Positions 13,383 through 18,094 are shown, counted from the stretch's first letter. The stretch: DNA of 32,000 bases from Clostridium kluyveri (GCF_001902295.1 NZ_CP018335.1:1926702-1958701), one strand, 5' to 3'. The notes: generated by a model from the sequence alone, not told the origin. A program made the numbers and translations.

Positions 13383-13745
13383 ATGGAGGTGGATCAAATG
13401 AAACATAACTATGCTGAATATGTACCAATATTTAAAGCACTTGCAGATGAGACCAGATTAAAAATAGTTGATATGCTTTCCTGTGGTGAGATGTGTGCTT
13501 GTGATATTTTAGAGTTTTTTAATATTACACAGCCAACACTTTCATACCATATGAAGATTTTAACTGATTGTAATATTGTTAACGCCAGAAAAGAAGGTTC
13601 TTGGATGAAATACTCTCTAAACTTACTTAAATTTGAGACATTTGAGAAGTTCGTGAACGACATCAGTAAAAATACTGATGATTGCATATGCAAAAATTAC
13701 TGCAAAAATATTAAAAAATGTTCCGATGATTCTGAGTGCAAATAA
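13383..13745 (+). CDS. arsR: ArsR/SmtB-family repressor with Cys-rich C-terminal tail
   Basis: wHTH ALADETRLKIVDML; metal-site-like SCGEMCACDILE on the DNA-binding side, QPTLSYHMKIL; tail CICKNYCKNIKKCSDDSECK. Preceded by a strong dyad operator. Confidence 0.9.
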   Translation: MEVDQMKHNYAEYVPIFKALADETRLKIVDMLSCGEMCACDILEFFNITQPTLSYHMKILTDCNIVNARKEGSWMKYSLNLLKFETFEKFVNDISKNTDDCICKNYCKNIKKCSDDSECK

Positions 13746-13783
13746 GTCTTATAGGAAATTAGAAATTTGGGAGGTTAGTAAAT

Positions 13784-14992
13784 TTGAATAATAACAATTA
13801 TTTCAATTCTGAAAGAAAGCTTAAGAAGAATTCTAAAGTAAAAATAGTAAGAATAAAGCAAAAACCTGATGATACATCTATTTCTTCTAACTATGAAACA
13901 GTACAGAACTCCTGTTGTTGTGGAAGTGAAAGCAAGGAATCATGTGAACACATTACTAAATATGATATAAAACAGAAATGGATAATTGGAGAAATAAGTA
14001 CCTCACAAGGCTGTGTACCATGCATTTCTACTAAATTGTCACTTACTGATATATGGGGTACATGGAAAGTACGCTTTGGAGTAAACAGAATGAATTATAA
14101 AATCAATTCAGGACTCTATGCAGTAGGAACACCTGATAACACAGCCCCTATTCTGGTAACATCAAACTATAAACTGACCTTTGATACTTTGAGAAAAGAG
14201 CTAGATGGGCTTAATGTATGGATAGTGGTACTAGATACGAAAGGGATAAATGTATGGTGTGCAGCAGGTAAGGGCACATTTGGAACTAAGGAACTTGTGA
14301 ACAGAATTTCAAAAGTAAGGCTTTCTCAAATTGTATCACACAAAACGTTAGTACTTCCTCAGCTTGGGGCACCTGGAATAAGTGCTCACCAAGTTACAAA
14401 ACAGTCTGGCTTTAAGGTGGTATATGGTCCTGTGAGAGCTAAAGATATAAAAAAGTTTTTAGAATCAGGAATGAACGCCACAGAAGAAATGCGTGAAGTA
14501 AAGTTTAATATAATTGACAGGGTGGTTCTGACACCAGTTGAATTTGTGAGTACTTTTAAAATTGCCATGTTAGTTTTTGGAATAATGTTTGTTATAAATT
14601 TATTTGCCGTTAATCCCTTTGGAGTAATTGATTTTTATGCATTTATAGGTGCATTGCTGGTGGGCTGTGTTATAACCCCTATATTACTGCCATGGATTCC
14701 AGTAAGGGCTTTTGCTGCAAAAGGCTGGATTATGGGACTTATTTGGGCAGTTACTGTAAATATACTTAATGGTTGGTCTGCAATACCGGAATATGGTGCA
14801 TTAAAAACCATTGCATATTTATTGATTTTGCCATCTGTAGCCTCATATTATGCTATGAACTTTACCGGATCTTCTACTTATACATCTTTTTCAGGTGTAA
14901 TAAAGGAGATGAAGATAGCAGTTCCTGCAATTGCTGTTTCAATAGGACTTGGAGTAGGATTGCTTTTAGTAAACAGCTTTATTCACATTTAA
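13784..14992 (+). CDS. hgcA: Mercury methylation corrinoid protein HgcA
   Basis: Diagnostic cap-helix motif GINVWCAAGKGTFGT, VLPQLGAPGISAH and about five C-terminal TM helices. TTG start after gggagg. Followed directly by HgcB. Confidence 0.92.
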   Translation: MNNNNYFNSERKLKKNSKVKIVRIKQKPDDTSISSNYETVQNSCCCGSESKESCEHITKYDIKQKWIIGEISTSQGCVPCISTKLSLTDIWGTWKVRFGVNRMNYKINSGLYAVGTPDNTAPILVTSNYKLTFDTLRKELDGLNVWIVVLDTKGINVWCAAGKGTFGTKELVNRISKVRLSQIVSHKTLVLPQLGAPGISAHQVTKQSGFKVVYGPVRAKDIKKFLESGMNATEEMREVKFNIIDRVVLTPVEFVSTFKIAMLVFGIMFVINLFAVNPFGVIDFYAFIGALLVGCVITPILLPWIPVRAFAAKGWIMGLIWAVTVNILNGWSAIPEYGALKTIAYLLILPSVASYYAMNFTGSSTYTSFSGVIKEMKIAVPAIAVSIGLGVGLLLVNSFIHI

Positions 14993-15002
14993 GGAGGTTA
15001 TT

Positions 15003-15302: not shown

Positions 15303-15312
15303 ATAGAATGGA

Positions 15313-16377
15313 GTGACTTATATGAGTATCGAACCCAAAAACAAATTGTCTTTTTTAGATAAGTTTTTAACACTTTGGATTTTTATTGCAATGGCAATAG
15401 GTATTTTATTAGGTTGGGGAGTTCCAGGTTTATCAGAGGAATTATCTAAATTATCTGTTGGTACTACATCTATACCCATAGCAATTGGACTTATTGTAAT
15501 GATGTATCCCCCACTTGCAAAAGTAAACTATAAGGAGATTGGAAAGGTATTTAGGAATCCAAAAGTTTTAGGATTATCACTTATCCAGAACTGGATTATA
15601 GGACCAATACTAATGTTTATACTTGCAGTAATTTTTTTGAAATCATATCCTGCATTTATGACAGGACTTATATTAATTGGTCTTGCAAGATGTATTGCTA
15701 TGGTTATTGTGTGGAATAGTTTAGCTGACGGCGATACGGAATATGCGGCAGCTCTTGTAGCGTTTAATTCTATATTCCAAATTATATTTTATTCTATATA
15801 CTCTTATATTTTTATTACAGTCTTACCAACTTGGATTGGTCTTACAGGTTACAAGGTAGATATATCAATGGGAGCAGTTGCTTCATCAGTAGCAGTTTAT
15901 CTGGGAATACCATTTGCGTTAGGTATATTAACAAGACTTTTATTAGAACCTAAAATGGGCACTGAATGGTACACAAAAAAGTTTATTCCTAAAATAAGTC
16001 CTTTGGCATTAATTGCTTTATTATTTACTATAATAATTATGTTTACTTATAAGGGGAAATATATAGTGGAGTTACCTATGGATGTGATAAGAATAACTAT
16101 ACCACTTATAGTTTATTTTGCTATTATGTTTACAGTTTCCTTCTTTATTAGCTTTAAAGCTGGTATTGATTATAAAAAAACGACTACTCTTGCATTTACG
16201 GCTGCAAGTAATAACTTTGAACTTGCTATTGCTGTAGCAGTTGCGGTGTTTGGGGTAGAATCTAAAGAGGCATTTACAGCAGTAATAGGACCACTTGTTG
16301 AAGTTCCAATTATGATAGGACTTGTGAATGTAGCTCTTCATTGGGGAAGAAAGTATTTTGGTTTAAAACAAGAATAA
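15313..16377 (+). CDS. acr3: Acr3-family arsenite efflux permease
   Basis: 10-TM ORF with [19 protein letters not shown] and [18 protein letters not shown] signatures of Acr3. ATG 15322 is an alternative start after aatggag. Confidence 0.92.
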
Positions 16378-16444
16378 TTATATTTATTATGTGTTGTGAA
16401 TTTAATTAAGAAATGATAATAAAGTACATGAGAGGAGAAAATTT

Positions 16445-18094
16445 ATGAAAGTTGTTATAATAGGTGCTGTAGCTGGTGGAACATCTGCGGCCGCGAAAGC
16501 AAGAAGAAATGATGAAAATACAGAAATAAAAATATTTGATATGGATTACGATATATCTTATTCAGGATGCGGATTACCTTACTATATAGGAGAAGAAATA
16601 CAGGATAGAGGCGATTTAGTTCCAAGAAATGCTGAATTCTTTAAGAAAAAATATAATGTAGATGTATTTAGAAGACATGAAGTTTTAAAAATAATTACAT
16701 CGTATAAAGTTTTGATAGTAAAGAATTTAGAGACTAATGAGATATTTACTGAAAACTATGATAAATTAGTGATTGCCACAGGAGCAAAACCTATAGTACC
16801 TAATATACCAGGAGCAGAGAAGAGTAACGTGTTTTATTTAAGAAATGTACTTCAAGCAGATAAGATAAAAGAATACATATTAGCTCACAAACCTAAGTCA
16901 GCAGTAATAATTGGAACTGGTTTTATAGGATTAGAAATGGCGGAGAACTTAAAGAATCTTGGGATTGAAGTTACACTGGTAGAACGTCTAAATCAGGTTA
17001 CTCCTGGATTAGATAGTGATATGGCTGTATATGTAGAAAAATACTTGAAAGACAAAAATATTAATGTAATTTTAGATGATTCAGTAGTTGAATTAAATGG
17101 ATATGGATTAATAAATCAAGTAGTCCTGCAGAGTGGTAAAGTATTAAATACAGACTTTGTAATTATGTCTATAGGGGTAAAACCAAATGTAGAGATTGCA
17201 AAAGAAGCTGGAATTGAACTTGGAGCCAAAGGTGCTATAAAGGTAAATACAAAAATGATGACCAATATAGAAAATGTATATGCTTGTGGGGACTGTGCTG
17301 AAAGTTATTCTGTTATTACAAAAAAGTCTTTTTATAGGCCATTAGGTTCAACAGCAAATAAAATGGGTAGGATAGCAGGAGATCAGCTTTCAGGGGGCAA
17401 TCTTGAATTTAGGGGTATACTTGGTACTGGTATTTTCAAAATTTTCGATATGACCGTTGCTCAAACTGGTCTTACAGAAAGAGAAGCTCTTAATGAAGGT
17501 TTTGAACCAGTTGTTTGCCATAATATCAAGCCAGATAAACCAACATACTATAATGGAAAAGAAATGGTTATTAAGGCTGTCGCAGATAAAAAAACTAGAA
17601 AGCTTCTTGGAGTTCAGATAGTAGGATATGCTGGTGTTGATAAGAGGGTAGATGTATTTGTTACTGCAATAACCTTTGGGGCTAAGGTGGAAGATTTATT
17701 TCATTTAGACTTGGCATATGCTCCACCGTTTTCAACAACGAAAGATCCTGTTATGTACACAGGAATGATTTTAGATAATGTAATAAATAGGGATAGAAAA
17801 CTTATAACACCTAATGAGCTTCATAAGCTTATAGAAAGTAGAAATGATGTTACAGTTATTGATGCAAGAGTTTGTAGACAGTTTGAAGAATCTCATGTAG
17901 ACAATGCTATAAATATACCACATGATGAAGTAAGAGGAAAGGTTAACCAATTGGATAAAGAAAAACCAATTGTAGCTTACTGCAATAAAGGCGTAACAGG
18001 AAATGCAGTGCAGAATATATTAATGAATAATGGATGTAAGAAAGTTTATAATATTTCTGGCGGTCATGAGAATTATAAAACACAAACTAATTAA
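16445..18094 (+). CDS. FAD-dependent pyridine nucleotide-disulfide oxidoreductase (CoA-disulfide reductase-like) with C-terminal rhodanese domain
   Basis: GAVAGGTSAAAKARR, YSGCGLPYYIG redox Cys, YACGDCAE, then a rhodanese domain with VAYCNKGVTGNAV. Confidence 0.9.
   Translation: MKVVIIGAVAGGTSAAAKARRNDENTEIKIFDMDYDISYSGCGLPYYIGEEIQDRGDLVPRNAEFFKKKYNVDVFRRHEVLKIITSYKVLIVKNLETNEIFTENYDKLVIATGAKPIVPNIPGAEKSNVFYLRNVLQADKIKEYILAHKPKSAVIIGTGFIGLEMAENLKNLGIEVTLVERLNQVTPGLDSDMAVYVEKYLKDKNINVILDDSVVELNGYGLINQVVLQSGKVLNTDFVIMSIGVKPNVEIAKEAGIELGAKGAIKVNTKMMTNIENVYACGDCAESYSVITKKSFYRPLGSTANKMGRIAGDQLSGGNLEFRGILGTGIFKIFDMTVAQTGLTEREALNEGFEPVVCHNIKPDKPTYYNGKEMVIKAVADKKTRKLLGVQIVGYAGVDKRVDVFVTAITFGAKVEDLFHLDLAYAPPFSTTKDPVMYTGMILDNVINRDRKLITPNELHKLIESRNDVTVIDARVCRQFEESHVDNAINIPHDEVRGKVNQLDKEKPIVAYCNKGVTGNAVQNILMNNGCKKVYNISGGHENYKTQTN

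Follow-up and report, generated by a model that had tools for sequence, protein, structure and literature searches.

A predicted arsenite-inducible operon of Clostridium kluyveri that carries the mercury methylation genes hgcA and hgcB and appears to be a recent chimera

The present analysis concerns a 32,000-nt stretch of Clostridium kluyveri DNA (GCF_001902295.1 NZ_CP018335.1:1926702-1958701), hereafter the window, with coordinates counted from its first letter, and within it a cluster of arsenic genes that encloses hgcA and hgcB of mercury methylation. Translation of the window places five co-directional open reading frames (ORFs) on the plus strand at 13383-18094, in the order arsR, hgcA, hgcB, acr3 and a gene for a flavoprotein-rhodanese fusion that resembles coenzyme A disulfide reductase (CoADR). 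An earlier note on this DNA had described this five-gene set at the same positions, and its ORFs, families and motifs are all present. The genes, with the elements that probably control them, are as follows.

13280-18097, plus strand: arsR-hgcA-hgcB-acr3-CoADR/rhodanese cassette, consisting of promoter/operator and five genes; a discrete homology block
13300-13351, unstranded: candidate ArsR operator, with perfect 18-nt inverted arms (13300-13317 and 13334-13351) around the -10 element
13301-13329, plus strand: predicted sigma-70-type promoter, TAGACA, 17-nt spacer, TATAAT; 11 of 12 matches
13398-13745 (ORF 13383-13745), plus strand: arsR, 115 aa, predicted As(III)-type ArsR/SmtB repressor
13784-14992, plus strand: hgcA, 402 aa, TTG start, corrinoid protein of mercury methylation
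15003-15302, plus strand: hgcB, 99 aa, 2x[4Fe-4S] ferredoxin
15322-16377 (ORF 15313-16377), plus strand: acr3, 351 aa, ACR3-family arsenite efflux permease, a chimeric gene
16445-18094, plus strand: CoADR-like flavoprotein-rhodanese fusion, 549 aa
18093-18117, plus strand: terminator-like hairpin of the intrinsic type, 10 pairs followed by a T run, directly after the last stop codon
13218-13262, unstranded: imperfect hairpin just outside the cassette, with 21-nt arms (86% complementary) followed by a T-rich run

The most likely starts of arsR and acr3 are the ATG codons at 13398 and 15322, the first with GGAGG 7 nt upstream and the second preceded by GGAG, and independent gene calls concur with both; with these starts the intergenic gaps are, in gene order, 38, 10, 19 and 67 nt. 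The shared strand is not informative on an operon, because 24 of the 27 window ORFs of at least 110 aa lie on the plus strand. That the five genes are a unit is argued instead by the short gaps and by the conservation of precisely 13280-18097, which begins 20 nt 5′ of the operator and ends 3 nt beyond the final stop codon, as a block in other genomic contexts. Profile searches of the same 27 ORFs detected no member of the MerA, MerB, ArsC or ArsM families, and on this absence the earlier note was correct. With a score of 144.7 bits the flavoprotein fell short of the MerA cutoff of 454, and no mer family occurs among the other window ORFs, which are housekeeping genes, so that there is no mer operon (MerA with MerB, MerR or MerT/P) in the window.

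The regulator belongs to the winged-helix ArsR family (HTH_5, 56.6 bits; NF033788, 90.6 bits against a cutoff of 55) and carries the motif LSCGEMCACDIL together with a C-terminal CICKN...C tail. In an alignment anchored on database copies of ArsR from E. coli K-12 (genome record) and Listeria pLI100, its Cys33 and Cys35 fall on Cys32 and Cys34 of the E. coli protein, which are As(III) ligands there, placing a Cys-x-Cys in helix alpha-3 at the As(III) site as in As(III)-sensing ArsR proteins. The Listeria pLI100 protein, which AMRFinder labels As(III)-sensing, has a matching motif and a matching CIC at its C-terminus, and identity of the cassette ArsR is 53–59% to plasmid ArsRs with that label and 56–62% to ArsRs from arsR-CoADR-acr3 operons lacking hgcAB. 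Taken together these features support in silico a canonical As(III)-type ArsR, and its release from the operator by As(III) would be predicted. An alternative explanation could be that the regulator senses another signal, such as Hg(II), Cd(II), Zn(II), persulfide or S-adenosylhomocysteine, and that the operon is not primarily arsenic-responsive. ArsR/SmtB proteins do take many different ligands, the cassette ArsR has an extra Cys-rich C-terminus, and CoADR-rhodanese enzymes, encoded here in the last gene, are tied to persulfide metabolism, as in the CoA-persulfide reductase 8A56. Moreover, in P. mercurii ND132, where an ArsR protein controls hgcAB, this regulator (ArsR2) has a non-canonical four-cysteine site and also responded to S-adenosylhomocysteine (Gionfriddo et al. 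2023). This explanation would not, however, account for a Cys-x-Cys aligned with the As(III) site of E. coli ArsR within a motif that is that of As(III)-labelled plasmid ArsRs, nor for an ACR3 equivalog among the regulated genes, and the equivalog models for non-arsenic sensors (BigR, 40.9 against a cutoff of 155; CmtR; others) scored far below their cutoffs; we regard a different ligand as improbable.

The promoter at 13301-13329, just 5′ of arsR, is the top promoter match in the scanned interval 11000-19800. Each arm of the palindrome around its -10 element is itself an ATAGA-N6-TCTAT dyad, so that the promoter region resembles two repressor-dimer sites. The same promoter/palindrome layout precedes arsR in all seven close hgcAB-linked relatives, and a related layout (TTGACA..TCTATAT, -10, ATATAGA) is found before arsR in ars operons without hgcAB. 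Comparison of the window site (13300-13351) with its equivalents in the loci L007, L008, L167, L169, L171 and L172 showed arms that are perfectly complementary in six of the seven close relatives, L171 breaking the symmetry, and two positions that vary between lineages and are changed on both arms. Across the alignment 97.6% of cells were paired and 4 cells were changed on both sides, a score reached by 2 of 500 shuffles. Arm length ranged from 18 to 21 nt across relatives and the central triplet varied (CTC, TTC, CTT, CTA, ATC). Perfect arms despite a varying triplet suggest either that the half-sites may co-evolve or that the palindrome may correct itself by template switching. A role as an RNA hairpin is unlikely, as the -10 element sits between the arms and a transcript from this promoter would contain the right arm alone. 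At the other end, the hairpin that would close the operon lies in context-specific sequence, homology to other copies of the cassette ending at 18097. The terminator scan gave no convincing site between the five genes, and an Rfam scan gave no RNA element in the cluster. The hairpin at 13218-13262 is probably the terminator of the DUF362 gene upstream. As regards the arsenic-type operon carrying hgcAB proposed in the earlier note, the As(III)-type ArsR and the ars-operon promoter layout thus lend it support in silico, as they do the arrangement of the five genes in a single putative transcription unit.

HgcA matched the equivalog model NF040863 at 487.2 bits (cutoff 275) over model positions 1–325 of 325, a match that spans the corrinoid-binding and transmembrane domains and assigns the protein to the HgcA equivalog. 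The cap-helix cysteine is residue 159, within NVWCAAGK, and N156, V157, W158, C159, A161, G162 and K163 were invariant in 18 homologues. HgcB, whose gene starts 10 nt past the hgcA stop codon, scored 130.1 bits on NF040864 (cutoff 99) and has the features by which HgcB is recognized, namely two CxxCxxCxxxC motifs (CVGCGRCIEVC and CMECGACAKNC), GVGCA with its internal Cys, and a terminal GCC. Every motif previously noted for the pair, i.e. the cap-helix GINVWCAAGKGTFGT, two 4Fe-4S motifs, GVGCA and the terminal CC, was found in the translations. HgcA also has an N-terminal extension with a cysteine cluster, NSCCCGSESKESC (residues 42–54, 13907-13945), of which Cys46 is nearly invariant among 18 Bacillota-type homologues. 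The protein is 100% identical to one named HgcA of Clostridium kluyveri by NCBI, while an older GenBank record annotates the gene product (13784-14992) as a 335-aa ‘acetyl-CoA synthase subunit gamma’, so that surveys relying on annotation text would miss the hgcAB of this species. In the searchable literature we found no test of mercury methylation by C. kluyveri and no discussion of the species as a carrier of hgcAB. Plasmid carriage of hgcA was rejected, as HgcA had no match among the 72,556 plasmids of PLSDB.

The transporter is a member of the ACR3 family (TIGR00832, 438.2 bits against a cutoff of 282.8, positions 1–327 of 327), and the bile-acid symporter model scored far below its cutoff. 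The last gene encodes Pyr_redox_2, Pyr_redox_dim and C-terminal Rhodanese domains (Pfam). It is labelled CoADR-like here because it scored 468.8 bits on the CoADR equivalog TIGR03385 against a cutoff of 578.8 and so falls outside CoADR in the strict sense; other CoADR models were also below cutoff. It does belong to the class of CoADR-RHD and CoA-persulfide reductases, in which a redox-Cys flavoprotein domain is fused to a rhodanese with a catalytic Cys: the redox Cys42 (in SYSGCG) and the rhodanese Cys513 (in YCNKGVTGN) were both invariant in 5 homologues, and full-length matches were obtained to the solved structures 3ICR (412 bits), 3NTA and 8A56, the last a CoA-persulfide reductase.

With no arsC in the window, it could be asked whether this enzyme is the missing arsenate reductase of the operon, an Acr2-like rhodanese domain being recharged by the fused flavoprotein. 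The rhodanese fold is common to the Acr2/Cdc25 arsenate reductases, the enzyme recurs as a partner in ars operons, and the same hypothesis was raised for the Fusibacter homologue (Serrano et al. 2017), which is encoded by pno (CoADR plus rhodanese) in an arsR-pno-acr3-arsC operon of Fusibacter and other Clostridiales. The active-site loop, C-N-K-G-V-T-G, is unfit for that role, having no arginine and thus no extended C-x5-R of the Acr2/Cdc25 kind, and is sulfurtransferase-like; Serrano et al. concluded likewise for the Fusibacter loop CNKGVTGN, which is unlike that of the Acr2 arsenate reductase. In addition the Fusibacter operon contains arsC as well, and among proteins of solved structure the nearest are reductases of CoA disulfide and of persulfide. 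Arsenate reduction by this enzyme is consequently very unlikely, and on the strength of the loop and the structure matches its most likely substrates would be a persulfide, a polysulfide or CoA disulfide.

Neither does the reductase behave as a specific partner of HgcAB. Among 61 metagenomic relatives at 50% identity or more, acr3 was adjacent in 19 and arsR in 27, while none had hgcA within 8 kb, and where at least 1.5 kb was available on both flanks (n = 29) acr3 was found in 14 and arsR in 16. The enzyme is an accessory gene of ars operons in general, and a specific partnership with HgcAB as a general rule was rejected. One Desulfosporosinus metagenome-assembled genome (MAG; L025, 5874-9715) has the order arsR-CoADR/rhodanese-hgcA-hgcB-Thioredoxin_3, with no acr3 within 8 kb, and is an independent juxtaposition of the reductase with hgcAB, so that some link between the two may exist.

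How the cassette came together may be read from its other copies. It is 96.3% identical over ~4,820 nt to the metagenomic contigs L176, L177 and L178, whose flanks differ from those of the window; the flanks of L176 differ also from those of L177 and L178, although a 5.4-kb block, 99.9% identical, is common to L176 and L177 in otherwise different surroundings. In Clostridium sp. WILCCON 0269 the two halves of the cassette lie on separate contigs. One of these (L167) carries arsR-hgcAB and is 84.6% identical to window positions 13300-15304 only, while the other (L174) has acr3 and the reductase behind a different arsR, of the CVC type, and is 96.5% identical to 15370-18097 only. The step in identity from 84% to 96% falls within acr3, with a crossover at about 15370-15400; the hgcB-acr3 spacer and the first ~25 acr3 codons resemble the hgcAB-linked acr3 of L171 and L172, and against L174 acr3 is 57% identical in the first 100 aligned columns and 91–100% per 100 columns thereafter. 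The gene is chimeric, and the simplest account is that an arsR-hgcAB-acr3 operon and an arsR-acr3-reductase operon underwent homologous recombination where acr3 encodes its conserved first transmembrane segment. Sequence comparison thus shows the cassette as a recent chimera, now in at least three genomic contexts.

The chimeric acr3 has consequences. First is that the linkage of hgcAB with acr3 would predate the cassette. Secondly, the reductase would be a passenger of acr3, and having arrived with it tells little about the function of HgcAB; what the earlier note read from this enzyme about a thiol-linked role of HgcAB is left mostly unsupported, given that the reductase recurs in ars operons without hgcAB and came with most of acr3. 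Thirdly, acr3 would have lost its own regulator in the recombination and would now depend on the hgcAB-type ArsR and promoter. This last point bears on the possibility that the genes are neighbours only and that acr3 and the reductase gene are transcribed independently of arsR-hgcAB. The two halves are indeed separate units in WILCCON 0269, and a weak promoter-like match lies at 16362-16390. Yet the recombination removed the regulator and promoter of acr3, the 19-nt gap between hgcB and acr3 contains a ribosome-binding site, no terminator-like site is predicted in that gap, and the five genes move as one block, and we find independent transcription hard to credit.

No terminal repeats or transposase delimiting the cassette were found. 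A vacant site was looked for in other genomes of C. kluyveri and not found, the cassette being present on all contigs that had the exact flanking protein. A resolvase lies upstream of the cassette in L177 and L178, and 3′ of it (7535-10312) both contigs have another arsR (97 aa) together with genes for Thioredoxin_3 and ArsP. In L178 the neighbouring arsP is interrupted by a Tn916-type integrase/excisionase module, and as these genes interrupt that neighbour they were rejected as the carrier of the cassette. In a read-archive assembly of the same locus (L004), acr3 and the DUF362 gene are each split in two ORFs (6025-7154 and 9326-10379), which is either a frameshift or an assembly error.

The wider distribution was surveyed in 80 hgcA loci of reference genomes, with 48–79% HgcA identity and mostly from Bacillota. 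A gene for an ArsR lay within 600 bp upstream of hgcA in 51 loci, an ACR3 gene on the same strand and no more than 3 kb away in 23 (9 of the clade in the window and 14 of a second deep clade), a Trx-type arsC within 8 kb in 24–25, and, near hgcA, a Thioredoxin_3 gene in 8, arsP in 6, a CoADR-rhodanese gene in 5, and arsA and arsD in 3. Both ACR3 clades score above the family cutoff, and transporters at ~33% identity, considered at one point as another family, are true members from the second clade. The genes occur as arsR-acr3-hgcAB, as hgcAB-arsR-acr3, and with acr3 between hgcA and hgcB, which argues for repeated, independent linkage of hgcAB with ars genes. The last arrangement is that of a Bacillota MAG (L045, 7851-12335), where the acr3 stop codon overlaps the hgcB start and a CoADR-rhodanese gene comes next. 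Nearer relatives, at 74–83% HgcA identity, keep the core of regulator and hgcAB, with tails that differ or are absent:

L167 and L169: arsR-hgcAB without an ars tail
L171: arsR-hgcAB followed by acr3 and by a fusion of arsC with GNAT
L172, 5637-11842: arsR-hgcA-hgcB-acr3-arsC (LMW-PTP type)-Thioredoxin_3-arsP-cobW-GNAT
L173, 5533-9100: MarR regulator in place of ArsR, and an IS605-family OrfB gene between hgcA and hgcB; HgcA 74% identical

The L172 operon includes genes associated with organoarsenical resistance. Conservation of the neighbourhood in relatives, proposed earlier as a check, holds in some of them for acr3 near hgcA (23 of 80 loci) and fails for the five-gene form, which is not kept at 74–83% identity.

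These counts invite the explanation that anaerobic Bacillota use HgcAB in the detoxification of arsenic or metalloids. It might, for instance, methylate As(III) or As-thiol complexes in a corrinoid-dependent reaction or process them in some other way, with mercury methylation as a side reaction and the operon as a functional pathway. The frequency of arsR directly upstream of hgcA, the proximity of acr3 of two deep clades in several gene orders (including that of L045), the nearby Trx-type arsC and arsP genes, and the L172 operon, in which hgcAB heads acr3, arsC, Thioredoxin_3, arsP and GNAT genes, are all consistent with it, as is the greater sensitivity to As(V) of an hgcAB deletion mutant of ND132. 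Sensitivity to As(III), however, was not increased in that mutant, no account of arsenic methylation dependent on HgcAB was found in the literature, ars structural genes are missing from the vicinity of about 45 of the 80 hgcAB loci, the closest relatives (L167, L169) are arsR-hgcAB alone, and one repressor for both functions does not require a common pathway. We consider this explanation unlikely, though deserving of some weight. In a more speculative form, which we hold doubtful, arsR-hgcAB-acr3 might have been selected and transferred as a metalloid-stress pathway in which HgcAB would act on As(III) or arsenic-thiol species or would protect a corrinoid-dependent process, methylmercury being a by-product; recurrent, independently assembled linkages and a mobile chimeric cassette fit such a pathway without proving it.

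Overall, the locus is probably an ArsR-repressed, arsenite-inducible operon of C. kluyveri, recently formed as a chimera. ArsR dimers would occupy the two dyads that bracket the -10 element of the single promoter; As(III), and probably Sb(III), would bind the Cys-x-Cys and cause ArsR to leave the DNA, whereupon one transcript would run to the terminator at 18093-18117. Judging from family membership, Acr3 would export arsenite and the flavoprotein-rhodanese, like its counterparts in other ars operons of clostridia, would carry out NAD(P)H-dependent reduction of CoA persulfide, polysulfide or CoA disulfide. HgcA and HgcB would be made at the same time as the ars proteins, so that the capacity for mercury methylation would be switched on by arsenic. 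Several points weigh against an arsenite-inducible operon. Cys37 of E. coli ArsR, the third ligand, aligns with Leu in the cassette protein, which has an alternative cysteine (Cys29) four residues before the Cys-x-Cys, as in Listeria pLI100 ArsR, in addition to its Cys-rich C-terminus, and for these reasons the exact set of As(III) ligands is uncertain; R773 ArsR needs only two cysteines. The response of ND132 ArsR2 to S-adenosylhomocysteine implies that control of hgcAB by an ArsR-family protein need not be arsenic-specific. The promoter-like site at 16362-16390 (9 of 12 matches) lies at the 67-nt gap ahead of the reductase gene, the model leaves the function of HgcAB within the operon unexplained, and both the operon structure and the As(III) response in C. 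kluyveri are predictions.

The native function of HgcAB and the control of its expression are open questions of mercury biogeochemistry, gene abundance being a poor predictor of methylmercury production. The C. kluyveri locus adds no new concept to them but is an unusually clean test case, with a canonical As(III)-type ArsR, a well-defined candidate operator, and hgcAB locked physically to an arsenite pump in a single predicted transcription unit, in a cultivable and industrially used chain-elongating Clostridium. The arrangement predicts that exposure to arsenite or antimonite turns on methylation capacity, and such arsenic-gated methylation could be relevant where arsenic and mercury together contaminate fermentations, pit mud or sediments. 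How hgcAB may be shuffled among ars operons is illustrated by the history of recombination, and the reductase that came along with acr3 is a warning against reading function into every neighbouring gene.

Elsewhere in the window, a DUF362 gene with a 4Fe-4S domain lies just upstream of the cassette (12020-13150) and has a GC content of 0.43 against ~0.31 in its surroundings. This gene and a flavodoxin gene were considered as partners of hgcAB and rejected, both lying outside the cassette boundary at 13280 and neither type occurring near hgcA in the 80 reference loci; L167 has a DUF362/Fer4 gene 4 kb downstream of hgcAB. At 174-6584 a BcrAD/BadFG-type activator ATPase gene and two genes resembling the D component of 2-hydroxyacyl-CoA dehydratase are interspersed among the genes of an ABC transporter, which encode its ATPase, its permease and an NMT1-type binding protein, and the one Rfam match in the window, a lysine riboswitch (RF00168, 115.5 bits, 27013-27189), lies directly upstream of an amino-acid permease gene (27222-28766).

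The central ideas raised by this locus are not new. Flanking of hgcAB by acr3, arsC, arsM and arsR was published by McDaniel et al. (2020, mSystems, Fig. 6), with later mentions in Zhang et al. (2023) and Peterson et al. (2025); control by ArsR and induction by arsenic were demonstrated by experiment in ND132 by Gionfriddo et al. (2023), who explicitly tested a link of HgcAB with arsenic resistance; and the arsR-pno-acr3-arsC operon was published by Serrano et al. (2017). The novelty implied in the earlier note was consequently overstated, and its question of an arsenic-linked role for HgcAB was already in the literature and partly tested. What is new here is the origin by recombination, the operon type itself having been described.

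Compared with plasmid and chromosomal ars operons of Gram-positive bacteria such as arsR-arsA-arsB of Listeria pLI100, the cassette shares the ArsR motif LSCGE(x)CACD(I/L)LE and the C-terminal C(I/V)C, at 51–53% identity, and, presumably, As(III)-responsive autoregulation; the cargo differs, and no PLSDB plasmid has an HgcA homologue. With the CoADR-RHD enzymes, NADH-dependent persulfide reductase and CoA-persulfide reductase (3ICR, 3NTA, 8A56) the reductase shares its two-domain architecture and both cysteines, but the C. kluyveri protein lies in an arsenic operon and not in one for sulfide stress, and it scores below the NCBIfam CoADR cutoff. The ArsR-controlled hgcAB loci of McDaniel et al. 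(2020), Gionfriddo et al. (2023) and Peterson et al. (2025) have, as here, an arsR-family gene directly upstream and co-directional, and published hgcAB-ars loci likewise combine an adjacent acr3 with proposed arsenic-responsive repression. ND132 differs in having no ars structural genes at the locus and a four-cysteine ArsR2, as opposed to the canonical Cys-x-Cys ArsR and the acr3 within the operon of C. kluyveri, and neither a CoADR-rhodanese gene nor a chimeric origin is reported for the hgcAB loci in the cited papers, while the C. kluyveri cassette combines the two. Finally, the arsD-arsR-pno-acr3-arsC operon of Fusibacter sp. 3D3 (Serrano et al. 2017; Acosta-Grinok et al. 2022) shares ArsR, ACR3 and a CoADR protein with the CNKGVTGN loop; its reductase gene precedes acr3 rather than following it, and it has the arsC and arsD that the C. 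kluyveri cassette does without, whereas in the latter hgcAB is inserted between arsR and acr3.

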